A stretch of 64,000 nt of DNA, taken from positions 6,043-70,042 of the forward strand of contig CAZJNI010000002.1 of the NCBI GenBank assembly GCA_964547465.1, given 5' to 3'. Below the pieces are notes generated by a model, which had not been told where the DNA came from, made no database searches, and saw only the letters and a program-made list of their open reading frames with translations. Source of the DNA: an uncultured Gammaproteobacteria bacterium. Lineage in GTDB: Bacteria; Patescibacteriota; Microgenomatia; Daviesbacterales; UBA10151. The first letter of the stretch is position 1. Each line of letters begins with the position of its first letter. The position numbers and the translations under genes are program-made. Shown in pieces: positions 2,560-57,155 of this stretch.

Positions 2560-3210
2560 ATGAGAGGGATAAAGGTAGAAGGAGTTATTTTAAAGAGAAG
2601 GAATTTGGGGGAGGCGGATCGGATTTTAACTGTTTTTTCGCTGCAAAAAGGTAAGATTTCTGTTTTGGCAAAAGGGGTTAGAAGAATAACTTCCAGAAGA
2701 TCAGGGAATGTGGAACTGCTTAATAGGTCTTTAATGTATCTTCATCAGGCTAAAACTTTTTTAATTTTAACAGAGGCTACAACACTAGATACTTTTTCAA
2801 AAATAAAGTCTGACCTTACTCTTTCTACTTATGCCTATCATATTTTGGAACTGGTTGATAAATTAACTGCAGAAAATCAGGAAAATAGGATTTTATATGA
2901 ACATTTAGTACAAGTTTTAAAAAGACTCGAGAAAAATCCCCGCCAGATTCTGATTCGGGCATTTGAGGCAAAGATTTTATCAAACTTGGGCTTTATTAGC
3001 TTCTTAGAGTCACACCCTGGAGTGTCAAAGGGAATACACCCCTGGGGTGTCCAATTACTGAAAAGTTTGGAGTTATCCTTGTGGGACGGGATTGAGAAAA
3101 TGGAAATTTCTCAAAAGCAGGCTATGGAACTGGAGCGTGTTTTAAGATATCATTTAGAGAGAGTGATTGAAGGATCACTTAAATCAAGAAGATTCCTAAA
3201 AAAGATTTAG
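2560..3210 (+). CDS. recO: DNA repair protein RecO-like (cysteine-free)
   Basis: N-terminal MRGIKVEGVILKRRNLGEADRILTVFS...VLAKGVRR matches the RecO N-terminal OB-fold pattern. Length 216 aa. Confidence 0.65.
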   Translation: MRGIKVEGVILKRRNLGEADRILTVFSLQKGKISVLAKGVRRITSRRSGNVELLNRSLMYLHQAKTFLILTEATTLDTFSKIKSDLTLSTYAYHILELVDKLTAENQENRILYEHLVQVLKRLEKNPRQILIRAFEAKILSNLGFISFLESHPGVSKGIHPWGVQLLKSLELSLWDGIEKMEISQKQAMELERVLRYHLERVIEGSLKSRRFLKKI

Positions 3211-9365: not shown

Positions 9366-10106
9366 ATGGACCTTAAGGGTAAAGTATTTATTTTAACCGG
9401 AGCAAAAAGAGTAGGGCAGGATGTGGCCAAAACTTTGGGTGAGAGAGGCGCCAATCTGGTTATCTCTTATAACAACTCTTTAGAAGATGCTCAAGTTTTA
9501 CAAAGGGAATGTGAATCTTCTGGTGCCAGAGCGATTATCGTTAAGGCAGATTTATCCCAAAATAAAGATATAGAATCCTTGGCGGATGAAGCATTAAAGC
9601 AGTTTGGCGCAATCGATGGACTGATCCATATGGCTGCCAATTATCCCAAAACTCCTGTTGGTGGGATTACACTGGAGGATTTTGATAAAACAATGCATAT
9701 AATTGCAGCTTCTACTTTACTTTTGGGGCAAAAAATAGGAGCGCAAATGCAAAAAAATGAGGGGGATGTTAAAGGAAAAATGATTTTTTTCTCTGACTGG
9801 TCGGTTTTGAGGAATCCTTATCCGGATTATATTGTTTATAATGGGGCCAAATCAGCGGTGGAATCTTTTACCAAAAGTTTAGCAAGACAATTTGCGCCAT
9901 CTATTACTGTTAATGCTATAGCTCCCGGGCCAATCCTTAGGCCCCCCGATTTATCAGAGGAGGATAATGAGGAAGTGATGAGTAAGACTCCTTTAAAAAA
10001 ATGGGGTGGAAGTAAGGAGATTGCCAAAGCTGTTTTATATTTACTTGATGCTGATTTTGTGACAGGGATTATTTTGCCAGTTGATGGTGGCCGGTCAATT
10101 GCTTGA
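9366..10106 (+). CDS. SDR family NAD(P)-dependent oxidoreductase
   Basis: N-terminal TGAKRVGQDVAKTL Rossmann motif. Catalytic YxxxK region (YNGAKSAVE). 246 aa. An unusual insertion in the dcw cluster. Confidence 0.75.
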   Translation: MDLKGKVFILTGAKRVGQDVAKTLGERGANLVISYNNSLEDAQVLQRECESSGARAIIVKADLSQNKDIESLADEALKQFGAIDGLIHMAANYPKTPVGGITLEDFDKTMHIIAASTLLLGQKIGAQMQKNEGDVKGKMIFFSDWSVLRNPYPDYIVYNGAKSAVESFTKSLARQFAPSITVNAIAPGPILRPPDLSEEDNEEVMSKTPLKKWGGSKEIAKAVLYLLDADFVTGIILPVDGGRSIA

Positions 10107-10234: not shown

Positions 10235-10726
10235 ATGTATAAAAAGAAAAGTTTATCTAATTTAATTCTTTTAGTTCTGGAAAAGACGGCTGATGGTTAT
10301 GTGAGATTTGAAGATTTTACCACTCACTATTATAGATACCATTATGGTGCTCCTGAACTTAAAAAGTCTCAATTTTCCTTAACTTTGAAGAGATTAAGGG
10401 AGAATGGGTTAATTGATTTTGTTGATGATAATAAATTAATTCTTAAATTAACCGATAAGGGTAGAACGAAAGCATTGAAATCAAAAATATTATTAGAAGA
10501 TGAAAAATGGGATGGCAAATGGAGAATAGTTATCTGGGATATTCCAGAAAAAAGGAGGACAGTCAGAGATGTCTTGAGAAAACAATTAAAAAGCTGGAGT
10601 TTTACTCAATGGCAAAGAAGTGTATGGGCTACTAAGAAAAATTGCGCGAAGCCTTTAAGAGAATTCATAAATAAAACAGGAATAGACCGTTGGGTTAGGG
10701 TAATTGAATCAGATAATGTTGAATAA
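10235..10726 (+). CDS. PaaX-family-like transcriptional regulator (wHTH N-terminus plus PaaX_C-like C-terminus)
   Basis: C-terminal WDGKWRIVIWDIPEKRRTVRDVLRKQLKSWSFTQWQRSVW matches the PaaX C-terminal domain pattern. Confidence 0.5.
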   Translation: MYKKKSLSNLILLVLEKTADGYVRFEDFTTHYYRYHYGAPELKKSQFSLTLKRLRENGLIDFVDDNKLILKLTDKGRTKALKSKILLEDEKWDGKWRIVIWDIPEKRRTVRDVLRKQLKSWSFTQWQRSVWATKKNCAKPLREFINKTGIDRWVRVIESDNVE

Positions 10727-10782
10727 ATTTCAAAGTATATACGATCGTTATGAGTTTGAAACAATGTTATAATTAGCTTCAT

Positions 10783-11988
10783 ATGAAACAACTTATCAAA
10801 AAAGTTATTTCTCAAAAAATTATAAATATTTTTTATCATTTGCCAAAAGCAGTTTTAGCAAATATTTGGTATGGTTTCCCCACAAGAGGACTTAAGGTTA
10901 TTGGAGTAACCGGAACTGATGGTAAAACAACAACTGTTAATATGATTTATCAGATTTTAAAAGCTGCTGGTAAAAAGGTTTCCATGGTTTCAACTGTAAA
11001 TGCATTTGTAGCAGAAAAATCCTATGATACAGGTTTTCATGTTACCTCACCTGATCCATTCATGGTGCAAAGGTTTGCCAAGCGAGCACTTAATATTGGA
11101 GACGAGTATCTGGTGTTGGAGGTTACCTCGCATGCCCTAGATCAGTATAGATTTTGGGGAATAAAATTTGACGTAGGAATTATTACAAATATTACCCATG
11201 AACATTTGGATTACCATAAAACATTTGAAAATTATTTAAACACAAAGGTAAATTTATTGAAGAATGTAAGATTCGCAATGATTAATCAGAATTTAAGGGA
11301 AAAAATTAAAGAGAAAGTCAGAGGTAAGATTATTACTTTTGGAATAAATTCCGGGGATTTTAATCAAAAAAATGTAAAGTTAAATTTAAAAATACCAGGC
11401 GATTACAATATAGAAAATGCCTTAGCAGCTTTGGCTGTAGCTTTTAGTTTAAATATAGATAAAAAAATTGCCATAAAGAGTCTGGAGAATTTTGAGGGGG
11501 TTAAGGGTAGGATGGAATTTATAAAAAATAAAAAAGGAATTAAAATTGTGATTGATTTTGCCCATACTCCAAATGGTTTAGAGCAAGCTCTAAATTCCCT
11601 GCGTTCCCAAATTCAAAGTGGAAAATTGATTTCCCTGATAGGATGTGAGGGATACAGAGATGTGGGCAAAAGAGAGATGATGGGAGAGGTAGCTCAAAGG
11701 TTATCTGACATAGTAATTGTAACTGCAGTTGACCCAAGAGGACAGCTGGATACTATTAATAGACAGATTACTAAAGGAGCAGAAAAAAAAGGAGCAAAAA
11801 AAGAAATTAATTTTTTTATAATTAATGACCGGGAAAAAGCAATAGACTTGGCCATAAACAGTCTGGCAAAAAGAGGAGACATAGTTGGAATTTTCGGAAA
11901 AGGGCATGAAAATTCCATGAATTTGGATGGAAAAAAGGAAATTCCTTGGTCTGATGTTGAAGTAGTGCAAAAAGATTTGAATGGATAA
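10783..11988 (+). CDS. murE: Mur ligase, MurE-like (short form lacking the N-terminal domain)
   Basis: VIGVTGTDGKTTT P-loop of the Mur ligase central domain. Position after ftsI in the dcw cluster. Confidence 0.65.
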   Translation: MKQLIKKVISQKIINIFYHLPKAVLANIWYGFPTRGLKVIGVTGTDGKTTTVNMIYQILKAAGKKVSMVSTVNAFVAEKSYDTGFHVTSPDPFMVQRFAKRALNIGDEYLVLEVTSHALDQYRFWGIKFDVGIITNITHEHLDYHKTFENYLNTKVNLLKNVRFAMINQNLREKIKEKVRGKIITFGINSGDFNQKNVKLNLKIPGDYNIENALAALAVAFSLNIDKKIAIKSLENFEGVKGRMEFIKNKKGIKIVIDFAHTPNGLEQALNSLRSQIQSGKLISLIGCEGYRDVGKREMMGEVAQRLSDIVIVTAVDPRGQLDTINRQITKGAEKKGAKKEINFFIINDREKAIDLAINSLAKRGDIVGIFGKGHENSMNLDGKKEIPWSDVEVVQKDLNG

Positions 11989-15130: not shown

Positions 15131-16134
15131 GTCAACTTCTGGGTTTAGTATTATTATCGTTTGTTTCAACCAGTATTTTTATGGTGCCTTTTATAGATTT
15201 TCTCTATTTTTTAAAAAGAAGGTTTGAAAGAAAAGAAAAAATTGTAAAAAGTTATGAAACTCCGATTCATGATAAATTGATGAAACAAGACGAATTAACT
15301 CCTTCAGGAGGAGGAATACTTTTAATTTTAGTTATGATAATTCTAAGTATTAGCTACACACTATTTAGTCCAATTGTGGATAGAATAAGTTTAAAAATTC
15401 TTCTTTTAACTCTGATATCTTTTGGGTCACTGGGATTGCTGGATGATATTAAACTTATTATTACCAGAAGAGAAGGTAAGTTTTTAGGATTGGGTAGAAA
15501 GAGAATGCTTTTTGTGCAACTAATTCTTGCACTGCTTATTTCCTCTTTACTTTACTTTATGGCCGGATTAAATAATCTTTATATTTCAGGACTTGGTAAT
15601 TTTGTTATTGGTTTTTGGTATATTCCGCTGGCTGCATTTGTGATAGTTTCATTTGCCAATGCCTATAATATCTCTGATGGTCTTGATGGCTTATCTGCAG
15701 GACTTCTACTGATTTGTTTATTTGCTTTTTTGGCATTGGCCTCGACCTCTTTGGATTTAACTCTGGCATCCTTTATTGGGATTTGGATAGGTGCACTTTT
15801 TGCATATCTTTATTTTAATGTATGGCCGGCCAGGATTTTTTTGGGAGACGGGGGGGCTTTTGGGTTTGGGGCAACTCTGGCAGTTGTTGGCCTTTTGACA
15901 GGAAAAATTTTGGCACTGGCGATAATTGGTGGGATGTTTGTAATTATTGTTGCCTCATCCTTTATTCAGATAATGTCAAAAAAATTTACAGGCAAAAAAG
16001 TCTTACCGGTTGCACCTATCCATATGTATTTTAAATATATTGGCTGGCAGGAACCAAAAATAGTAACCAGATTTTGGTTGGCCCAAGGATTATTTGCTAT
16101 TTTGGGACTTTGGATAGCCCTACTATCTAAATAA
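15127..16134 (+). CDS. mraY: Phospho-N-acetylmuramoyl-pentapeptide transferase MraY
   Basis: NAYNISDGLDGLSAGL and multi-TM topology. Confidence 0.9.
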   Translation: MSQLLGLVLLSFVSTSIFMVPFIDFLYFLKRRFERKEKIVKSYETPIHDKLMKQDELTPSGGGILLILVMIILSISYTLFSPIVDRISLKILLLTLISFGSLGLLDDIKLIITRREGKFLGLGRKRMLFVQLILALLISSLLYFMAGLNNLYISGLGNFVIGFWYIPLAAFVIVSFANAYNISDGLDGLSAGLLLICLFAFLALASTSLDLTLASFIGIWIGALFAYLYFNVWPARIFLGDGGAFGFGATLAVVGLLTGKILALAIIGGMFVIIVASSFIQIMSKKFTGKKVLPVAPIHMYFKYIGWQEPKIVTRFWLAQGLFAILGLWIALLSK

Positions 16135-17231
16135 TGAATCAATTAAGAGTAAGCTTGCAATTACAAAAGAGACAATTTGATCTGATACTTATTTCTGTAG
16201 TTGGAATTTTAGTCATATTTGGTCTTGTAATGGTATATGATGCTTCAGCAATTCAGGGGTTGCGGGATTTTAAGGACAGCTATTATTACATAAGACAGCA
16301 GTTAATTTGGGTCGTGTTAGGGTTATTTTCTCTTTTTTTCTTCTCTTTTTTTAAATACACCAAATTTAAAAAAATAGCCTTTCCTTTACTTTTAATTTCA
16401 CTTGGGCTTCTAGTGGCAGTTTTCATTCCAGGCCTCGGGATTTCTGGAGGAGGAGCACATAGATGGTTAAAGTTGGGTCCTGGAACTATTCAGCCAGCTG
16501 AAATAATAAAACTTACCGGAGTAATTTTTCTCTCTGCCATATTTGAGAAAAGAACCAGGATATTACCATTTTTAATTCTCTTGGGAATCGTTACGCTAAC
16601 TACAGCTGTTCTACAGAAAGATTTAGGTTCAACTATAGTCTTTGTGTTAACATCTTTAATTATATATTTCGGAAGCGGTGGCGCAATTTGGCATCTCCTT
16701 GCAATTTTACCAATAGGAGTTGTTGGGTTTTTAGGGTTAGTTCTTACTTCAAGTTATAGAAGCAAAAGAATCTTAGCTTTCTTAGATCCATTTTCTGATA
16801 CTCAAGGTTTCACTTATCATATCTCACAGGTTTTAATTGCTTTGGGATCTGGAGGTTTTCTAGGGTTAGGTTTAGGTCATTCCAGACAAAAATTTGAATA
16901 TATTCCAGAGGTGACAACTGATTCCATTTTTGGAATAGTGGGAGAGGAGTTAGGTTTTCTTGGGTCTATATTTTTAATTACCCTATTTGTAATTTTAATT
17001 TTAAGAGGACTTAGGATTTCCAAAGAATGTCCAGACAGGTTCGGTAAAATTCTCTCATTAGGTTTGACAACCTGGTTAGGCTTACAAGCGGCAATTAATC
17101 TTTCATCAATGATTGCTCTGCTGCCTTTAACTGGGGTACCTCTTCCCTTTATCTCATATGGAGGTTCAGCACTTTTGGTAAATCTGACTGCTGTTGGAAT
17201 ATTAATTAACATTTCCAAGCAATCTGCCTGA
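16134..17231 (+). CDS. ftsW: SEDS-family peptidoglycan glycosyltransferase FtsW
   Basis: Ten-TM SEDS pattern with a conserved end (PLPFISYGGSALL). Position between mraY and murG. Confidence 0.8.
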   Translation: MNQLRVSLQLQKRQFDLILISVVGILVIFGLVMVYDASAIQGLRDFKDSYYYIRQQLIWVVLGLFSLFFFSFFKYTKFKKIAFPLLLISLGLLVAVFIPGLGISGGGAHRWLKLGPGTIQPAEIIKLTGVIFLSAIFEKRTRILPFLILLGIVTLTTAVLQKDLGSTIVFVLTSLIIYFGSGGAIWHLLAILPIGVVGFLGLVLTSSYRSKRILAFLDPFSDTQGFTYHISQVLIALGSGGFLGLGLGHSRQKFEYIPEVTTDSIFGIVGEELGFLGSIFLITLFVILILRGLRISKECPDRFGKILSLGLTTWLGLQAAINLSSMIALLPLTGVPLPFISYGGSALLVNLTAVGILINISKQSA

Positions 17232-17252
17232 TTTTTTGAGTATAATCAAAAT

Positions 17253-17987
17253 ATGAAGATATTTTTGACGGGACATAAGGGTTATTTGGGAAGTGAATTC
17301 GTAAAACGTTATGGTAATAAGTATGAAATAGTAGGTTATGATCGTAAGGAAGGTGATGAACTGCTAGATTATGATAATCTGAAAAAGAAAATAAAAGGCT
17401 GTCAGCAAGTTGTTCATCTGGCTGCTATCCCTAAGCCTATGGAAGGTAAAGTATTTGAAGAATACTTTGATAATAATGTTAGGACCGTATTAAATATTGT
17501 AAAAGCTGCTGTTGAAAGTAATCTTAAAAGGATAATTTATGCAAGTTCGACAACTATATATGGAATAGAGAAAGGTATCCCATTTAAAATTCCTATCAAC
17601 GAAGACCAACTTTTTGTATCCCAGTATATTTCGGTAGATCAATTAACGTGTCGGGATGTTGACCTTTCTTATCATATTAGTAAAGTAATGGCAGAACAAA
17701 TTATGGCCTGGTATGGTTTAAATAAGAAGATTCAAACCATAGCTTTACGCTTTGGTCCTATTAATAAAGTATTTTTAGGAACGAGTGTTAGCATTAATAA
17801 TGCAACTCAAGCTATAAAATTAGCAATAGATTATACTGGTGAACTTTGGTATGAACCGTTTAGTATTGTGGATGAGCTTCTGCACATTAGCATAAGGAAA
17901 GCCAGAGACATCTTAGGATATAGCCCGAAAAAAACTAATTATACTCCTGAGCAAATTCATTCAACTCTGGAAGAGAGAACAAGGTAA
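17253..17987 (+). CDS. NAD-dependent epimerase/dehydratase family protein (short)
   Basis: N-terminal GHKGYLGSEF (GxxGxxG) Rossmann motif. YxxxK (YHISK). 244 aa. Confidence 0.6.
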   Translation: MKIFLTGHKGYLGSEFVKRYGNKYEIVGYDRKEGDELLDYDNLKKKIKGCQQVVHLAAIPKPMEGKVFEEYFDNNVRTVLNIVKAAVESNLKRIIYASSTTIYGIEKGIPFKIPINEDQLFVSQYISVDQLTCRDVDLSYHISKVMAEQIMAWYGLNKKIQTIALRFGPINKVFLGTSVSINNATQAIKLAIDYTGELWYEPFSIVDELLHISIRKARDILGYSPKKTNYTPEQIHSTLEERTR

Positions 17988-18003
17988 GTTGGGGGATAAA
18001 CCA

Positions 18004-18754
18004 GTAAGGTCAGACCTTACGAATCTAATCTTCCAATATTTTATTTTCTATCACTGAAAAATCATCATTTTCTTCTACGAATGCTTTATATGTAAGTTTA
18101 GGATTAGTTTTAGAAAAATTACTTAAAACCTCTTCTGGATGAACCCACTGCGTTTTTCTTTTGCCTAAATACTCATAATATGAGCATGGTTGAGTTTGCA
18201 AGGAGTCTCCTTGCAAAGCTAGTGCTTGTTTATGTATATAGCGGGACAGATGAAGAAATTGATTTTCATGGGTTACTAAAACTGCTTTGTATACATCTTG
18301 AAATAATGAACCTACTCTTTTGTATTTACGGTTAAAATACATGGTATACCTTGTGCATAATGATCTCATAAATTTATTAATTGTTTGGGCTGATTTTTGT
18401 TTAATAAAGAAATGAAAGTGATTAGGCATTAAACAATAGGCAATTAAAGATACTTCATCAGCAAAATTATTTAATCGAAGTATTTTTAGTATTTTATCCT
18501 TTTCTCTGTAAGAAACATTTGGATCTCCAAGTCTTTTTCTTAAAGTTTCCTCATCTTTAGGTAATAAATATTCTCTTAAATAGCCTAGTAATACTCCATA
18601 ATCTTGTTCATCTAGAAAAATTGTCCTCTTCTCAACTCCACGATTGTATAAGTGGTAATAACTATTATCCACATATAGCTTCAGAGAATTACGTGCCGGC
18701 ATAGTTTCAGTTTACCAGACTTTCGTTAAGCACACAAGGAGTCTCCTGGTGTGC
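18004..18754. mobile_element. IS200/RayT-like unit: Y1 HUH transposase gene bracketed by near-perfect palindromes (18004-18020 GTAAGGTCaGACCTTAC; 18730-18754 GCACACAAGGAgtcTCCTGGTGTGC), inserted between dcw genes
   Basis: Palindromes seen directly. An internal copy of the AAGGAGTCTCCTTG motif is at 18198-18214. REP-associated tyrosine transposases are known to be flanked by palindromic REPs. Confidence 0.4.
18025..18702 (-). CDS. IS200/IS605-family Y1 (HUH) transposase, REP-associated RayT-like
   Basis: HUH motif MPNHFHFFI and a catalytic Tyr region (RYTMYFNRKYKRVGSLFQ). N-terminal YHLYNRGVEKRTIFLDEQDY is typical of COG1943. Confidence 0.75.
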   Translation of the reverse strand: MPARNSLKLYVDNSYYHLYNRGVEKRTIFLDEQDYGVLLGYLREYLLPKDEETLRKRLGDPNVSYREKDKILKILRLNNFADEVSLIAYCLMPNHFHFFIKQKSAQTINKFMRSLCTRYTMYFNRKYKRVGSLFQDVYKAVLVTHENQFLHLSRYIHKQALALQGDSLQTQPCSYYEYLGKRKTQWVHPEEVLSNFSKTNPKLTYKAFVEENDDFSVIENKILED

Positions 18755-18796
18755 CTGTGGTTGAATCAGGTTCAGGTATAACGTATTATTACCTAT

Positions 18797-19912
18797 ATGA
18801 AGATTTTAATTACCGGGGCTCATTTTACACCTGCTGTAGCAGTTATTGAGCAGTTAAAAAAGAATTATCAGGCAGAGATTGTCTATGTTGGAAGAAAAAC
18901 TACTTTGGAAGGAGATAATACCCCTTCTCAAGAATCTCAAGTACTTCCAAAAATGGGAATAAAGTTTATTACAATTACAACCGGAAGGTTGCAGAGAGAA
19001 TTTACCATTTATACAATTCCTTCACTTCTTAAAATTCCAATAGGATTAATCCAATCACTATTTATTATTTTATTTGAAAAACCCAATGTAATATTGTCTT
19101 TTGGCGGGTATGTAGCTTTGCCGACAGTCTTTATAGGATGGCTTTTTTCAATACCTATTATTGTTCATGAGCAGACATTAGTATCCGGACTTGCCAATCA
19201 AATAAGTGCTCTATTGGCAGATAAAATTGCTTTGTCTTTTGATAAAGGCTATCAGATTAACAATACAAAAACTGTTCTAACTGGAAACCCAATCAGGGAG
19301 GAAATCAAGTCCCCTCAAAAATTTTCATTAGGCTCTGATTATAGGAAAATATTTGATTTAGCTAAAAAGAGTAATTCCCCTGTAATATTAGTTATTGGAG
19401 GTAATCAAGGTTCCCATACTATTAATTTAGTAATTGAGAACTCGTTGTCTAAATTATTAAAAATAGGGTACGTAATCCATCAAACAGGGGACACAAAATT
19501 TAGCGATTTTGAAAGATTAGAGGAAAAACAGAATGAGAAATATTTAGTGAAAAAGTGGATTGATAAGGATATAGGAATTGTTTTATCAGGTGTTGATTTT
19601 GTAATTTCAAGGGCTGGTGCAAATACTTTGGTAGAACTTGCATATTTAGGGAAACCAGTATTAACAATTCCATTCGAGCCGCTCTATAATGATGAACAGA
19701 ACAAAAACGCAAAGTATTTTGAAGATTTAGGCTTAGCGAGAATTCTACCTCAAGTTAGATTATCCTCTAAAAGTTTGTTGGAAAATATAAAAATTATGCT
19801 TAAGGATTTAGATAATCTAAAAGAAAAAGCCAGAAAAATTAGAGAAACTATAAATACAGATGCAGCAAATAGATTAGCTTTGGAGACAACGCTTTTGGGT
19901 AAAAGAAATTAG
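18797..19912 (+). CDS. murG: Undecaprenyldiphospho-muramoylpentapeptide beta-N-acetylglucosaminyltransferase MurG
   Basis: MKILITGAHFTPAVAV N-terminus and a GT28 C-terminal region (VISRAGANTLVELAYLGKP). Confidence 0.85.
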   Translation: MKILITGAHFTPAVAVIEQLKKNYQAEIVYVGRKTTLEGDNTPSQESQVLPKMGIKFITITTGRLQREFTIYTIPSLLKIPIGLIQSLFIILFEKPNVILSFGGYVALPTVFIGWLFSIPIIVHEQTLVSGLANQISALLADKIALSFDKGYQINNTKTVLTGNPIREEIKSPQKFSLGSDYRKIFDLAKKSNSPVILVIGGNQGSHTINLVIENSLSKLLKIGYVIHQTGDTKFSDFERLEEKQNEKYLVKKWIDKDIGIVLSGVDFVISRAGANTLVELAYLGKPVLTIPFEPLYNDEQNKNAKYFEDLGLARILPQVRLSSKSLLENIKIMLKDLDNLKEKARKIRETINTDAANRLALETTLLGKRN

Positions 19913-19915
19913 AAT

Positions 19916-20704
19916 ATGTTTTCTAAAAGATTAAAACGAAATACAGGATTTTTTAATAAGATCCTGATTTTTTTCACGGCAATTTTATTTTTAGTTCTTG
20001 TTTTTCTGGTTATAAAATCTTCAATTTTCGTCATTAAAAATATAGATATTGAAAAACAAAATGTGGATTGTGTTGATGATTTAAAAATCAAAGATTCTTC
20101 CCGAATTTTGGGTCAAAATTTTTTCTTAGTAGACACTCAAAAAATAGAGGGAAATCTAAAACTTAAGTTTTTTTGTATAAAAAAAGTTTTAACTAAAAAG
20201 GAATTTCCGAATAAAATAAAGCTAACATTACTGGGAAGAGAAGCAAAAGTTCTAGTTGCTCCTTTAAAAAATAAGGAAGCGACAACAGCAGCACTTTTAG
20301 AAAATATTGCCACCCCTTCTGCCCAAGATTTTTCAGATAATTTTTTTGTGGATGATGAAGGTGTTTCCTTCGGTAAAGCAAGTACCGGAAATGACCTGCC
20401 CAAGATTTTTCTTTATGGTAAGGGAATACCTTTGGGGGAGCAAAATTTACAAATTAAAGATACGATAAGAATTTTAGAAAAAATTAAGTCATTTAATATT
20501 GACATTAAAACAATGACTATTCAGGGTGATTTTCTAATTACTGAAACGCAACCTAAAATAGTATTTAATTTAGCGGGTAAGATAGACACCCAAATTGCAT
20601 CTTTACAATTAATCCTGCAGCAAGCTAAAATAGACTCAAATACTTTGGAGTTTATCGATTTAAGATTTGATAAGCCAATTGTTAAATTTGCCCCAAAGAA
20701 ATAG
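19916..20704 (+). CDS. ftsQ: FtsQ-like cell division protein (bitopic, POTRA-like)
   Basis: N-terminal TM (ILIFFTAILFLVLVFLVI). Position between murG and ftsA. Confidence 0.5.
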   Translation: MFSKRLKRNTGFFNKILIFFTAILFLVLVFLVIKSSIFVIKNIDIEKQNVDCVDDLKIKDSSRILGQNFFLVDTQKIEGNLKLKFFCIKKVLTKKEFPNKIKLTLLGREAKVLVAPLKNKEATTAALLENIATPSAQDFSDNFFVDDEGVSFGKASTGNDLPKIFLYGKGIPLGEQNLQIKDTIRILEKIKSFNIDIKTMTIQGDFLITETQPKIVFNLAGKIDTQIASLQLILQQAKIDSNTLEFIDLRFDKPIVKFAPKK

Positions 20705-20706
20705 TT

Positions 20707-22005
20707 ATGGCTAAGGATAAAGTAATCTGTGGTATAGATGTTGGATCATCAAAAATAGCAACTCTTATAGCTTCAGTTGATGAAGACGGAAAAATAAATC
20801 TTATCGGTGTTTCCTCAACTATTTCCAGGGGAGTAAGAAAAAATCAGGTTGTTGATATAGACGAAGCCGTTGCTGCAATTACTGAATCAGTTGAGGCAGC
20901 AGAGAGAATGGCAGGATATTCGATTTCTTCGGCATTCGTTTCTTTGGGTGGTCCACAAATAGAAAGTGTAAATCAACATGCAGTTGTTGCTGTTTCAGAA
21001 CCAGAAGGTGAAATAAAAGAATCTGATATACAAAGAGTAAATGATGCGGCAAGAGCACTCCCGCTTCCCTCTTCAAGAGAAATCCTGCACGTTATCCCCA
21101 GGACTTTTACAGTTGATGGACAAGAGGGGATTAAGGATCCAATTGGGATGACTGGGGTGAGACTGGAAACAGAAACACATATTATCACAGGTTCCTCGAC
21201 TTCAATGAGAAACCTGGTTAAGTGTGTTTCGCAAGTTGGCATTGATGTTTTAGAGTTAGTATTTTCAGGAATTGCCTCATCTATTGCCGTTTTAACTGAT
21301 ACTGAAAAAGAGCTGGGGGTAGTTTTGGTTGATATTGGCGGAGAGACTACTGATGTGGTGATATTTATTGACGGATCAGTCTCTTATTCCTCTGTTATCC
21401 CGATTGGTGCCCGTCATATTACATCTGATATGGCGGTAGGACTTCGGATTTCTTTGGAATCAGCAGAGAAAATAAAATTATCTTTAGCTAAAGTGGTAAA
21501 TACTCCGGCATTGGCAGATGAGAAAGAAGAAGAAAGTAAAAACGGTGCTGCCAGGAAAAAGGAAGACGGAATGCTTGATATAAAATCCCTGGGAATCACA
21601 GAGGATATACAAAAAATCTCCAGAAAAGCAGTAGTTGATGGAATAATTAGACCAAGACTCCAGGAAATATTTAAATATGTTGGCAAAGAGATTAAAAAAA
21701 GCGGTTTTGGGACTCAAATTCCTTCAGGACTTGTAATTTGTGGTGGGGGAGCGCAAACTGTTGGAATTTTAGATCAGGCAAAATATGTTTTGGGATTTCC
21801 TGCCAGGATTGGTCAAATTGAAGGATTATTTGGAATGATTGAGGAAATTGATTCTCCAACTTTTGCATCTGCCGCAGGCTTGATTCTTTATGGAGCAAGC
21901 CAGGGAACAAGAGGAGAAATACATTTACCGGTTCTCTCCGGAAACTTACCACTTAAAGGAATGATACAAAAGGGAATTTCTCTCATAAAGTCATTCCTGC
22001 CCTGA
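20707..22005 (+). CDS. ftsA: Cell division protein FtsA
   Basis: Actin-like ATPase N-terminus ICGIDVGSSKIATLIA. Immediately precedes ftsZ. Confidence 0.85.
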   Translation: MAKDKVICGIDVGSSKIATLIASVDEDGKINLIGVSSTISRGVRKNQVVDIDEAVAAITESVEAAERMAGYSISSAFVSLGGPQIESVNQHAVVAVSEPEGEIKESDIQRVNDAARALPLPSSREILHVIPRTFTVDGQEGIKDPIGMTGVRLETETHIITGSSTSMRNLVKCVSQVGIDVLELVFSGIASSIAVLTDTEKELGVVLVDIGGETTDVVIFIDGSVSYSSVIPIGARHITSDMAVGLRISLESAEKIKLSLAKVVNTPALADEKEEESKNGAARKKEDGMLDIKSLGITEDIQKISRKAVVDGIIRPRLQEIFKYVGKEIKKSGFGTQIPSGLVICGGGAQTVGILDQAKYVLGFPARIGQIEGLFGMIEEIDSPTFASAAGLILYGASQGTRGEIHLPVLSGNLPLKGMIQKGISLIKSFLP

Positions 22006-22087
22006 TGTTTGATGTTCCTTATTTAGGTACTTGATATCATTAAGTACAATCTGCTATATTCGGAGCGAAGTCTGTCCAAGAAGTATT

Positions 22088-23233
22088 ATGTTGATCAAAC
22101 CTGATGTTCAGAGATTTGCCAAGATTAAAGTCGTAGGACTTGGTGGCGGTGGTTCTAATTCTATAAGCTCCATGATTGCTCTTCAGCAAATTCAAGGGGT
22201 GGAATTTGTGGCTATAAATACCGATGCGCAAGCTTTAATGAATAATCAATCCCCCACCAAAGTACAAATTGGTGAAAGTTTAACTAAGGGTTTAGGTTCT
22301 GGTGGAGATCCGGAAATTGGCAAACAGGCAGCTGAAGAATCGACCCAAAAGTTAGAAGATGTATTGCAAGATGCTGATATGGTCTTCCTGACAGCCGGAA
22401 TGGGTGGAGGAACTGGAACAGGCTCAATTCCAATAGTTGCACAAATTGCCAAAAACGTGGGAGCTTTGACAGTAGCAGTTGTAACAAAGCCATTTTCTTT
22501 TGAAGGAACAAAAAGGATGGTGGTGGCAGAAGAAGGACTGGAGAAACTTAAGGATAAGGTTGATGCATTAATTATTATCCCCAACCAAAGGTTGCTTGAA
22601 ACCGTTGACAAAAATATCACTTTGCAGGACGCATTTAGGTTGGCAGATTCTGTCTTGGGCCAAGGGGTTCAAGGTATTTCTGATTTGATTACCATGCCAG
22701 GACTTATTAATGTTGATTTTGCAGATGTTAAAACAATCATGTCTAATGCCGGTTCTGCTTTAATGGGAATTGGTGTGGCAGGCGGGGAAAACAGGGCTGC
22801 TGCAGCAGCCAGAATGGCTATTGCCTCGCCCCTCTTGGAGGTTTCAATTGAGGGTGCCAAAGGGGTTTTGTTTAATATTGTAGGAGGATCAGATCTATCC
22901 ATGGCAGAGGTTAATGAGGCGGCACAAATTATTGCTCAAGCCGCAGATCCTGATGCTAATATTATTTTTGGTGCAACTATAAAAGAGGATCAATTGGATC
23001 AGGTTAAACTTTCTGTGATTGCCACAGGATTTGATGAAACAAGAAGAAGGCTCCGGGAATATATAGGTAGTGGAATTGGTTCATCATCCCTGCAAAATAC
23101 AGCAACACCATGGCAGGAAGAGGCTGAAGAAACTCCCGCTTCTCAAACAGTTTCTGAAGCAGAAGTGGCAGAAGAAGAGACCAAAGAGGAAGACGACTTA
23201 GAAATACCTGCTTTCTTACGTAGTAACCGCTAG
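22088..23233 (+). CDS. ftsZ: Cell division GTPase FtsZ
   Basis: Tubulin signature GGGTGTG. IKVVGLGGGGSN. Acidic C-terminal tail with DDLEIPAFLR. Confidence 0.9.
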   Translation: MLIKPDVQRFAKIKVVGLGGGGSNSISSMIALQQIQGVEFVAINTDAQALMNNQSPTKVQIGESLTKGLGSGGDPEIGKQAAEESTQKLEDVLQDADMVFLTAGMGGGTGTGSIPIVAQIAKNVGALTVAVVTKPFSFEGTKRMVVAEEGLEKLKDKVDALIIIPNQRLLETVDKNITLQDAFRLADSVLGQGVQGISDLITMPGLINVDFADVKTIMSNAGSALMGIGVAGGENRAAAAARMAIASPLLEVSIEGAKGVLFNIVGGSDLSMAEVNEAAQIIAQAADPDANIIFGATIKEDQLDQVKLSVIATGFDETRRRLREYIGSGIGSSSLQNTATPWQEEAEETPASQTVSEAEVAEEETKEEDDLEIPAFLRSNR

Positions 23234-27262: not shown

Positions 27263-27568
27263 ATGTTAAATTATGCAATCTGTGAAATAAACGGTAAACA
27301 ATATAAGATTTTCCCTAATATTCCTTTGTTGATTGATTATCAAGGCGAAAAAAATAAGGATATAGAGGCTAATGTTTTGCTAATGGAGGATGGTAAGCTG
27401 CATTTGGGAAAGCCGTATCTTAAGGAAAAATTAAATTTAAAATTTGTTGAGAATACTCAAGGAGAGAAAGTCAGAGTATCTAAATTTCATGCCAAGGCAA
27501 ATTATAGAAAAATAACAGGTAAAAGAGCAAAATTTACCAAAGTTGTTCTGAATGTGAAAAGGGCTTGA
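27263..27568 (+). CDS. rplU: 50S ribosomal protein L21
   Basis: MLNYAICEINGKQYKI... Confidence 0.85.
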   Translation: MLNYAICEINGKQYKIFPNIPLLIDYQGEKNKDIEANVLLMEDGKLHLGKPYLKEKLNLKFVENTQGEKVRVSKFHAKANYRKITGKRAKFTKVVLNVKRA

Positions 27569-27592
27569 TACGTTCATGAGACTGAACGTATC
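27567..27592. repeat. Hairpin element GATACGTTCA-tgagac-TGAACGTATC in the L21-L27 spacer
   Basis: Perfect 10-bp inverted repeat seen directly. Related to elements at 43331 and 56724. Confidence 0.6.
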
Positions 27593-43212: not shown

Positions 43213-43330
43213 TTTTTTTGGAGCAGTTTAGTTTAAGGAGCAGAATTACAAAGCATTTTTATCCTATAAACGAAAGTTTGTCAAGGGGCAATTATGTAAA
43301 CTAATTGCCTCAAGGGGGCAAATCTGCGGG

Positions 43331-43355
43331 CCACGTTCATGTAAACTGAACGTGG
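43331..43355 (-). terminator. Hairpin CCACGTTCA-tgtaaac-TGAACGTGG directly abutting and including the encoded CCA of tRNA-Asp (no U tract)
   Basis: Perfect 9-bp inverted repeat seen directly. Core ACGTTCA..TGAACGT is shared with the 27567 and 56724 elements. Confidence 0.35.
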
Positions 43356-43428
43356 CGGGGCCGACGGGAATCGAACCCGCTATCTTCTCCGTGACAGGGA
43401 GACGTGATGACCGGTTCACTACGGCCCC
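43353..43428 (-). tRNA. tRNA-Asp (anticodon GTC), CCA encoded
   Basis: Manual fold of the reverse complement: acceptor GGGGCCG/CGGCCCC, D-arm GTGA-ACCGGTCA-TCAC, anticodon stem TCTCC/GGAGA with loop CTGTCAC, T-arm GCGGG-TTCGATT-CCCGT, then GCCA. Confidence 0.85.
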
Positions 43429-56714: not shown

Positions 56715-57155
56715 ATGTATCAAGATACGTTTATGAAGCTAAACGTATCAAGTGTCATGAAAGTAATCCAAAAAGTAGCTTTGGCTTTTTTTAAAAATGG
56801 GAAAATGCTGCAGGTAAGAACCAAAAAGCAGAATGAGATATTTTATACCCTGGGAGGGAAAATAGAAAAAGGGGAATCTGATTTAGAGTGTTTAAAAAGA
56901 GAGGTAAAAGAGGAAATAGGTTGTGGAATTGATGATGGATCATTAAAGTTCTTAAAAGAATTTGAGGACGTGGCACATGGGGGCGGAATTTTAAATCTTA
57001 AGTTATATGAAGGGAAAATAATCGGGGAGCCAAAAGCTTCTTCAGAAATTGTAGAAATTGGATATTTTGATACTCAATCAGATCCTAAAAAATTATCTGT
57101 TATTGCACAAAGAACAATCTTTCCCTGGCTTAAGATGCATGGATACATAAATTAA
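56715..57155 (+). CDS. NUDIX hydrolase; alternative start at 56757 (MKVIQK...) would place the hairpin in the 5' leader
   Basis: Nudix box GGKIEKGESDLECLKREVKEEIG. Confidence 0.75.
   Translation: MYQDTFMKLNVSSVMKVIQKVALAFFKNGKMLQVRTKKQNEIFYTLGGKIEKGESDLECLKREVKEEIGCGIDDGSLKFLKEFEDVAHGGGILNLKLYEGKIIGEPKASSEIVEIGYFDTQSDPKKLSVIAQRTIFPWLKMHGYIN
56724..56749. promoter_or_regulatory. Hairpin GATACGTTTA-tgaagc-TAAACGTATC plus GTATCAT direct repeats in the divergent dehydrogenase/Nudix control region
   Basis: Perfect 10-bp inverted repeat seen directly. Sister of the 27567 element, with a compensatory C/T change. Confidence 0.5.

Follow-up and report, generated by a model that had tools for sequence, protein, structure and literature searches.

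The stretch of DNA considered here, referred to as the window, comprises 64,000 nucleotides (64 kb) of contig CAZJNI010000002.1 (NCBI GenBank assembly GCA_964547465.1) and carries, within the division and cell wall (dcw) gene cluster, a gene for a Y1 HUH enzyme accompanied by three palindromes. Is this arrangement a mobile element that recently entered the cluster, a domesticated host gene, or an enzyme that is kept together with repeats of its own? A first-pass annotation, made from the letters of the sequence, had proposed an inserted and perhaps still active unit of a REP-associated tyrosine transposase (RAYT, also TnpA-REP) and its repetitive extragenic palindromes (REPs). In bacterial REPtrons, one REP family belongs to each tnpA-REP gene (PMC6006769), and our analysis makes it probable that the window contains a REPtron-like unit, in which a predicted single-stranded DNA endonuclease of the class-2 RAYT/TnpA-REP type is combined with three cognate double-foot palindromes and which belongs to a family spread throughout the Microgenomates. 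One palindrome lies upstream of promoter and ATG, one is translated in frame in a linker, disordered in the model, after the helix of the catalytic tyrosine, and one starts at the gene's own TAG stop codon.

The Y1 HUH gene and its palindromes

The RAYT/TnpA-REP-like gene is located on the minus strand at positions 18025-18702 and encodes a protein of 225 aa, an assignment that draws on the open reading frame (ORF), Pfam, a structural model searched with Foldseek, and the ratio of nonsynonymous to synonymous substitution rates (dN/dS). Against the Pfam family Y1_Tnp (PF01797) the protein reaches 46.9 bits, the gathering cut-off being 23. Its motif NHFHFFI spans residues 94-100 and includes the HUH triad His95-Phe96-His97 (codons at 18412-18420, minus strand), and the catalytic Tyr155 (codon at 18238-18240, minus strand) lies in the motif YIHKQ and in a helix formed by residues 146-162 of the model. 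Both histidines and Tyr155 are invariant in an alignment of 22 family sequences, and among 83 family genes the [ND]H.H motif was found in 81 and the Tyr motif in 77. The family profile aligned the HUH motif of ISDra2 TnpA and its catalytic Tyr region KYIESQ with the corresponding sites; since this profile search of the PDB delivered a weak match (E = 0.14), the fold was checked by structure instead. The AlphaFold2 model (predicted local distance difference test, 73; predicted template modelling score, 0.71) shows the order beta1, alphaA, beta2, beta3 with the HUH motif, alphaC, beta4 and alphaD with the tyrosine, together with two additional helices at residues 51-76 and a low-confidence loop at residues 163-174, into which the palindrome-encoded residues 161-173 fall. 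Its best PDB matches in Foldseek, with a probability of ~1.0, were IS608 TnpA, E. coli TnpA-REP (4ER8), ISDra2 TnpA and an IS200 transposase (2A6O, 4ER8, 2XO6 and 2F4F were among the top matches). Thus, as modelled, the protein has the characteristic Y1 HUH alpha/beta fold.

The dN/dS ratio of the gene is 0.15 in comparison to its closest relative (locus L007) and 0.12 in comparison to a second relative. Therefore the gene is intact and under purifying selection. A search of 5.8 billion proteins delivered more than 7,800 relatives. The best of these are ~70% identical, and their sources are Microgenomates such as Daviesbacteria and Levybacteria; almost every one of them was seen on a single contig. 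Proteins with 74-79% identity stem from short contigs. Viral contigs contained no relatives. Within the 64 kb there is only one copy of the Y1 gene, no tnpB partner was found among the window's ORFs beside it, Pfam detected no helix-turn-helix (HTH) domain in the protein, and an Rfam scan of positions 17000-20000 with E up to 1 gave no match.

The upstream palindrome (18728-18756, minus strand) is situated 26-54 nt 5' of the ATG and has the core GCACACAAGGAGTCTCCTGGTGTGC at 18730-18754. The downstream one (17997-18027, minus strand) is degenerate, reads TAGATTCGTAAGG-TCTGA-CCTTACTGGTTTA on the gene strand and has the core GTAAGGTCAGACCTTAC at 18004-18020; its first three bases are the TAG stop codon of the Y1 gene. 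Between them, at 18195-18217 of the minus strand, lies a perfect palindrome of 11+1+11 nt (unit 18191-18221 including the TAGC foot), which is translated in frame as LQGDSLQ directly after the catalytic-Tyr helix. In the 64 kb it is the best palindrome that does not consist of A and T only, and block shuffles gave 0.2 stems of at least 11. The exact 13-mer CAAGGAGTCTCCT is common to the internal and the upstream palindrome and occurs nowhere else in the 64 kb, nor does the 11-mer core have an exact match in the window beyond these two sites. By calculation, two stretches of 23 nt and 94 nt would share 13 nt by chance with a probability of ~3e-5. As single-stranded DNA, the upstream palindrome folds with -8.5 kcal/mol (z -3.0), the internal one with -9.5 kcal/mol (z -4.2) and the downstream one with -4.7 kcal/mol (z -2.3). 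The centre of the latter is unlike those of the other two. Its agreement with the family consensus TAGCTTCGCAAGG-N5-CCTTGCGAAGCTA and the identity of its TAG with the stop codon mark it as a diverged third copy and not an unrelated hairpin; it also scored as terminator-like on the minus strand.

Most of what the first-pass annotation had described at this locus is borne out. The 225-aa enzyme of the RayT/IS200 superfamily is supported by the Pfam domain, by the HUH motif and Tyr155 and by the predicted fold, and its position between ftsW/epimerase and murG by ORFs and Pfam. The two bracketing palindromes are present exactly where they had been placed. The internal copy, which had been given as 18198-18214, is present as well, but is larger than described.

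Other candidate sites in the window were discarded. At 2803-2819 there is an imperfect match to the 3' palindrome, which falls within an ORF (2560-3210) and which we put down to chance. The pattern AAGG-N5-CCTT occurs five times in the window (2.25 expected), and its other sites at 11935, 20358 and 20420 lack extended stems.

Hairpins of related Microgenomates loci

We collected 80 related loci from species-representative genomes, 71 of which were usable for hairpin matching. For each locus, three regions were compared with each other, namely 75 nt following the Tyr codon, 150 nt preceding the ATG and 150 nt following the stop codon; the longest exact match was scored if it reached 12 nt, and cross-locus comparison served as control. 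Such matches connected the internal and the upstream region in 54% of the comparisons within loci (2% across loci), the upstream and the downstream region in 63% (4% across loci) and the internal and the downstream region in 30% (2% across loci). The three-site layout of the window thus recurs among these loci, and the flanking by cognate palindromes that the first-pass annotation had expected from REP/RayT units holds for the family. One locus (L014) has one and the same 29-nt unit in each of the three sites, another (L068) a 26-nt unit three times; L027 and L033 contain CCAAGCCAGGCTTGG and CAGGGCCTCGCCCTG, respectively, three times each. That hairpins match within a locus and fail to match between loci indicates that gene and hairpins co-evolve, as they do in REPtrons.

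The common unit can be written as (T)TAGCYTCGCAAGG-N3-5-CCTTGCGARGCTA(A), and the hairpin feet as (T)TAGC...GCTA(A). Usually, the upstream copy is found 25-100 nt 5' of the ATG and in many loci directly before a TTGACA box, and the downstream copy begins at the stop codon or a few nt past it, so that its TAG often is the stop. Loops are often flipped between copies. Matches between the flanking hairpins show 0 mismatches on the same strand and 1-2 on the reverse strand, i.e. both ends bear subterminal hairpins of the same orientation. The linker stretch after the Tyr helix is prone to insertions and deletions and is absent from some members; those with a short linker have no internal copy, and their flanks still match. 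Where the internal copy is present, its peptides are diverse (LQGDSLQ, PSQAWM, HPFKGS, SQDTLLQ). This variety, together with the disordered loop of the model, places the constraint on the hairpin DNA and not on the encoded peptide.

In seven genomes two or three Y1 paralogues were detected, which are 52-67% identical among themselves and each have their own hairpin variant. This pattern is RAYT-like, i.e. that of class-2 TnpA-REP, and unlike IS200, whose copies within one genome are ~99% identical (PMC6006769). Furthermore, 917 kb of flanking sequence contained locus-specific hairpins away from the Y1 gene, namely 14 dispersed sites and one tandem array. The array (L053, 8500-8850) has a period of ~68 nt, its unit carries TAAGGTCTCACCTTA, and it is located ~1 kb downstream of the Y1 gene of that locus. 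When metagenomes were scanned with a strict 31-nt consensus, at least 120 contigs matched. Among the matches listed, 96 sites were classifiable. Of these, 31 belonged to a Y1 gene, 8 lying upstream of it, 4 within it and 19 at its stop, and 65 were not beside one. Away from the gene, the density of hairpins in relatives is about 1 per 50-65 kb.

Many of these copies are found within coding sequence. Again among the matches listed, 74 sites were flanked by 900 nt or more on either side, and 32 of these fell within frames that run for 150 codons or longer without a stop. The in-frame copies read SFARxxLAKL or LASQGxALRSY, and their host genes encode topoisomerase I (topA), a copper P-type ATPase (copA), threonyl-tRNA synthetase (thrS), an M16 peptidase and membrane proteins. 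Contigs with such in-frame 31-nt palindromes include L112, L132, L087, L096, L100 and L135, the last with two palindromes in one ORF. The assumption that all intragenic copies are simple insertions fails in some cases: CopA shows a net gain of 5 residues at the palindrome, in TopA the palindrome lies in a variable, insertion-rich region, and in the threonyl-tRNA synthetase the palindrome-encoded stretch is, as we take it, just as long as the E. coli sequence.

Residence in the dcw cluster and mosaic structure

In the window, ftsW (16134-17231) is followed by a gene of the NAD-dependent epimerase/dehydratase family (17253-17987, plus strand; Pfam Epimerase), which separates ftsW from the 3' end of the Y1 gene, and murG (18797-19912) follows on the other side. 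The first-pass annotation had taken the unit for a recent insertion into this cluster. This does not hold, since two related genomes (L007 and L024) have the Y1 gene in the same gap between ftsW and murG, and all dcw genes are synonymous-saturated between window and L007, with a proportion of synonymous differences (pS) of 0.66-0.78. The Y1 unit has therefore long resided between ftsW and murG. Five further loci have the gene beside ftsZ or between murG and ftsA, and more distant relatives have it in many other contexts. A domesticated gene fixed at one position, which the first-pass annotation had named, together with a genome-wide lack of further palindromes, as the finding that would speak against its proposal, is thus not what we observed: distant relatives differ in context, and related genomes contain free hairpins.

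The unit is old, and part of it appears young. Sliding identity delimits a block at 18190-18870 with 83-100% nucleotide identity to L007, which ends at the internal palindrome. Besides codons 1-173 of the Y1 gene, it takes in the upstream hairpin, the spacer and the first ~70 nt of murG; by the Y1 stop codon, identity to L007 has dropped to background. Between window and L007, pS is 0.30 for codons 1-173 and 0.70 for codons 174-225 (Fisher p = 2e-4). If only codons for identical amino acids are considered, synonymous differences amount to 17% before the palindrome, 41% after it and 49-62% in neighbouring genes. The N-terminal part of the protein is 93% identical to L007 and ~75% to other members, and the C-terminal tail is up to 77% identical to other family members and 63% to L007. 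Since the tail evolves faster across the family, the N/C contrast at the protein level is weak, and the case for a mosaic is based on synonymous sites. Of 13 other, more diverged gene pairs most lack an N/C contrast, and one shows it at p = 0.03. These comparisons show that the Y1 gene is a mosaic with its junction at the internal palindrome, and that its 5' two-thirds were exchanged recently with a related lineage. We also considered a cassette from the upstream to the internal hairpin as the exchanged unit and rejected it, because the block of high identity extends beyond the upstream hairpin by ~100-150 nt and reaches into murG.

Several observations on the genomic surroundings of the gene deserve separate mention. 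Within the dcw cluster or directly adjoining it, the Y1 gene is found in 8 of 76 loci (L007, L024, L082, L020, L048, L065, L078 and the window at 16134-23233), where it takes up three positions (ftsW|murG, murG|ftsA and beside ftsZ). This is far above what a genome share of ~1.4% would lead one to expect, the loci being phylogenetically non-independent. The slot between ftsW and the Y1 3' end is filled differently, namely by the epimerase gene in the window (17253-17987), by a gene for a haloacid dehalogenase (HAD)-like hydrolase in L007 (= L001, 6831-7604) and by nothing in L024 (10709-10720). In L024, a direct repeat of ~20 nt (CCTAAAnCTAAGCTGATTGT; 9920-9945 and 10712-10735), which corresponds to the last ftsW codons, flanks the Y1 unit. 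This duplication is puzzling, as Y1 transposition is not expected to duplicate its target. Moreover, contigs titled 'uncultured Gammaproteobacteria' or 'Dehalococcoidia' (L008, L012, L013, L017 and others) carry the Microgenomates-type Y1 gene. Where checked, their dcw genes are Microgenomates-like as well, so that taxonomy labels or binning are probably wrong.

Apart from this locus, the window contains a second, unrelated palindrome family at 27567-27592, 43287-43309, 43330-43356 and 56724-56749 (e.g., GATACGTTCATGAGACTGAACGTATC and GCCACGTTCATGTAAACTGAACGTGGC). It is situated in the promoter regions of parB-like, PolX/PHP polymerase (divergent from LysM) and NUDIX genes and resembles an operator common to these genes, perhaps belonging to a regulon of the DNA-damage type.

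Competing explanations and known systems

How might a REPtron-like unit work? The enzyme would bind hairpins extruded from single-stranded DNA, for example from the lagging-strand template, and would cut and rejoin at the hairpin feet, thereby copying, moving or homogenising the hairpins in the manner of REP-type mobilisation. The hairpins could thus become preferred junctions for DNA exchange, and now and then they may be copied to new sites, permissive in-frame sites included. In the genome studied here, the long-resident unit was overwritten in part, and recently, from a related lineage.

A number of results weigh against this explanation. The hairpin feet lack the canonical GT[AG]G tag of REPs, copy numbers are in the tens per genome and not in the hundreds, and the protein scores 36.3 bits against the RayT equivalog REP_Tyr_transpos (NCBIfam NF047646), under the cut-off of 80. 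The left edge of the young block lies inside murG and not at the upstream hairpin; consequently, ordinary homologous recombination that resolves in a conserved island is a sufficient explanation of the junction. Since the window's hairpin variant does not occur as a free copy in the 64 kb, activity is not evident in this genome, and nothing there points to REP proliferation. As the family has about one hairpin per 50-65 kb, this absence is uninformative. For the suggestion that the unit is active or was so recently, the young 5' two-thirds with the spacer and the junction at the internal palindrome provide evidence of a sort.

Three other explanations have to be weighed. The unit could be an autonomous insertion sequence of the IS200 type, the outer hairpins being the ends of a ~780-bp element that moves as a whole and was inserted into the dcw cluster. 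The predicted fold is nearest to IS200/IS605 transposases, the window's clade has the IS200-like motif Y-x-x-x-Q in the form YIHKQ (motif table in PMC6006769), hairpins of the same orientation stand on both sides, the gene is found in many genomic contexts, and the ftsW 3' end is duplicated around the L024 unit. However, there is one copy in 64 kb, copies within other genomes are far more diverged than those of IS200, and three genomes have kept the ftsW-murG position next to synonymous-saturated housekeeping genes. In addition, neither a tnpB beside the gene nor relatives in viral contigs were found. Because copies are single or diverged and because most hairpins among the matches listed are solo, without a gene, we regard an autonomous IS200-like element as unlikely.

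A fully domesticated protein, with a host role unrelated to hairpin movement, such as single-stranded DNA processing during replication or division, would explain the strong purifying selection, the wide and vertical-looking distribution and the recurrent dcw location in its three positions. The hairpins would then be operator, promoter insulator or terminator, to which the upstream copy directly before the TTGACA box in many loci and the terminator-like score of the downstream one fit. Regulation does not account, however, for an in-frame internal copy, for solo copies elsewhere and inside other genes, or for a separate hairpin variant of each paralogue, and this explanation seems rather improbable to us. 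If, finally, the palindromes were coincidental, a conserved LQGxxLQ peptide would have given rise to the internal one incidentally, and the outer ones would be ordinary terminators. The peptide Q-G-x-x-L-Q/R is indeed common in the family and the 3' hairpin is terminator-like, but matches within loci far exceed those between loci and the permutation control contradicts coincidence. Moreover, the encoded peptides vary while palindromy and flank match stay, and the linker is indel-prone and missing in some members, which leaves coincidence hardly credible.

One might speculate further that the Microgenomates, members of the candidate phyla radiation (CPR), possess a distinct partnership of Y1 enzyme and palindromes, in which hairpins of 31-33 nt spread in frame (topA, copA, thrS and the enzyme's own gene) as enzyme-made junctions for the swapping of modules between lineages. 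The catalytic module and the C-terminal tail would in that case be exchanged independently, as cassettes joined at the internal hairpin. We put this idea forward very tentatively and consider it doubtful.

The REPtron-like reading is of interest because no transposase retained by its hosts is better known than that of the RAYT/REP systems, which have been studied almost solely in Proteobacteria and Cyanobacteria. In ultra-small CPR genomes, we find a widespread family whose cognate hairpin is translated in the gene of its own enzyme, provides the stop codon and occurs in frame in essential genes. With three known sites per gene, it offers a compact, sequence-defined system for hairpin recognition and propagation by Y1 enzymes, and the same system could show whether hairpins drive gene mosaicism in streamlined genomes. 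Our literature search found no paper that joins RAYT or TnpA-REP with CPR/Patescibacteria.

How does the unit compare to known systems? With the E. coli RAYT/TnpA-REP (YafM, 4ER8; subclass 2.2, Quentin et al. 2018, PMC6006769) it shares the Y1 HUH fold, and with the E. coli REPtron a low-copy gene whose own flanking palindromes are found elsewhere in the genome too, one palindrome family per gene copy and diverged intragenomic paralogues. In contrast to that system, the feet are of the TAGC...GCTA type without a GT[AG]G tag, there are tens and not hundreds of copies, and these are common in coding sequence, one in frame in the gene and one supplying its stop. The protein has a helical insertion of ~35 aa after helix A and a C-terminal tail of 50 aa, and its NCBIfam equivalog score is below the cut-off. 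Atypical structures without a tag are known for subclasses 2.6 and 3 (PMC6006769), and REPs inside genes as well as flanking repeats of RAYT/TIRYT that overlap gene ends have been described (PMC3733652). Subclass 2.4 TnpA-REP (Bertels group 4; Cyanobacteria/Bacteroidetes), for which in-frame REP insertions within tnpA-REP genes are reported, likewise has double-foot palindromes, and the REPs in its own gene fall in a peripheral loop (PMC6006769). However, it belongs to different phyla and has WQ and YIxNNP, in contrast to FQ and YIHKQ/YIHRNP here.

The motif set of the family comprises NHFH, FQ, YIHKQ (window's clade) or YIHRNP/YIHLNP (distant members) and a PSSY tail in ~225-235 aa; the Tyr motif was YIHKQA in 32, YIHRNP in 21 and YIHLNP in 8 of the 83 family genes. 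The class 2 TnpA-Y1 signature Y-x-x-x-N-P is thus found in distant members, and the window's clade (YIHKQA) is without it. Judged by published motif comparison alone, the family looks most like subclass 2.1 TnpA-Y1/TIRYT (Bertels group 1; PMC6006769, PMC3733652), with which it has NH[YF]H, FQ and, in distant members, Y[IV]HLNP in common, and in addition the SS motif of the tail, a length of ~230-240 aa and diverged low-copy paralogues. Subclass 2.1 is, however, reported without REP-like sequences, or with GGGGWSAS terminal inverted repeats and an HTH-like C-terminal domain, whereas here the cognate hairpins are clear and Pfam finds no HTH. IS200 (IS200/IS605, subclass 1.1) resembles the unit in its Y1 fold, a size of ~0.7-0.8 kb, a hairpin at each end and the motif Y-x-x-x-Q of the window's clade, but its copies are numerous and nearly identical, in contrast to single or 52-67% identical ones, and solo hairpins outnumber gene-linked ones here among the matches listed. 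Rickettsia palindromic elements (RPEs) are palindromic repeats that are likewise tolerated in frame in essential genes (PMC3733652). The units described here differ from them in measuring 31-33 nt and in being linked to a Y1 gene. RPEs are longer and are not known to have an associated transposase. We conclude that the arrangement is of a known type, which the Microgenomates present in a new lineage and with a new layout.

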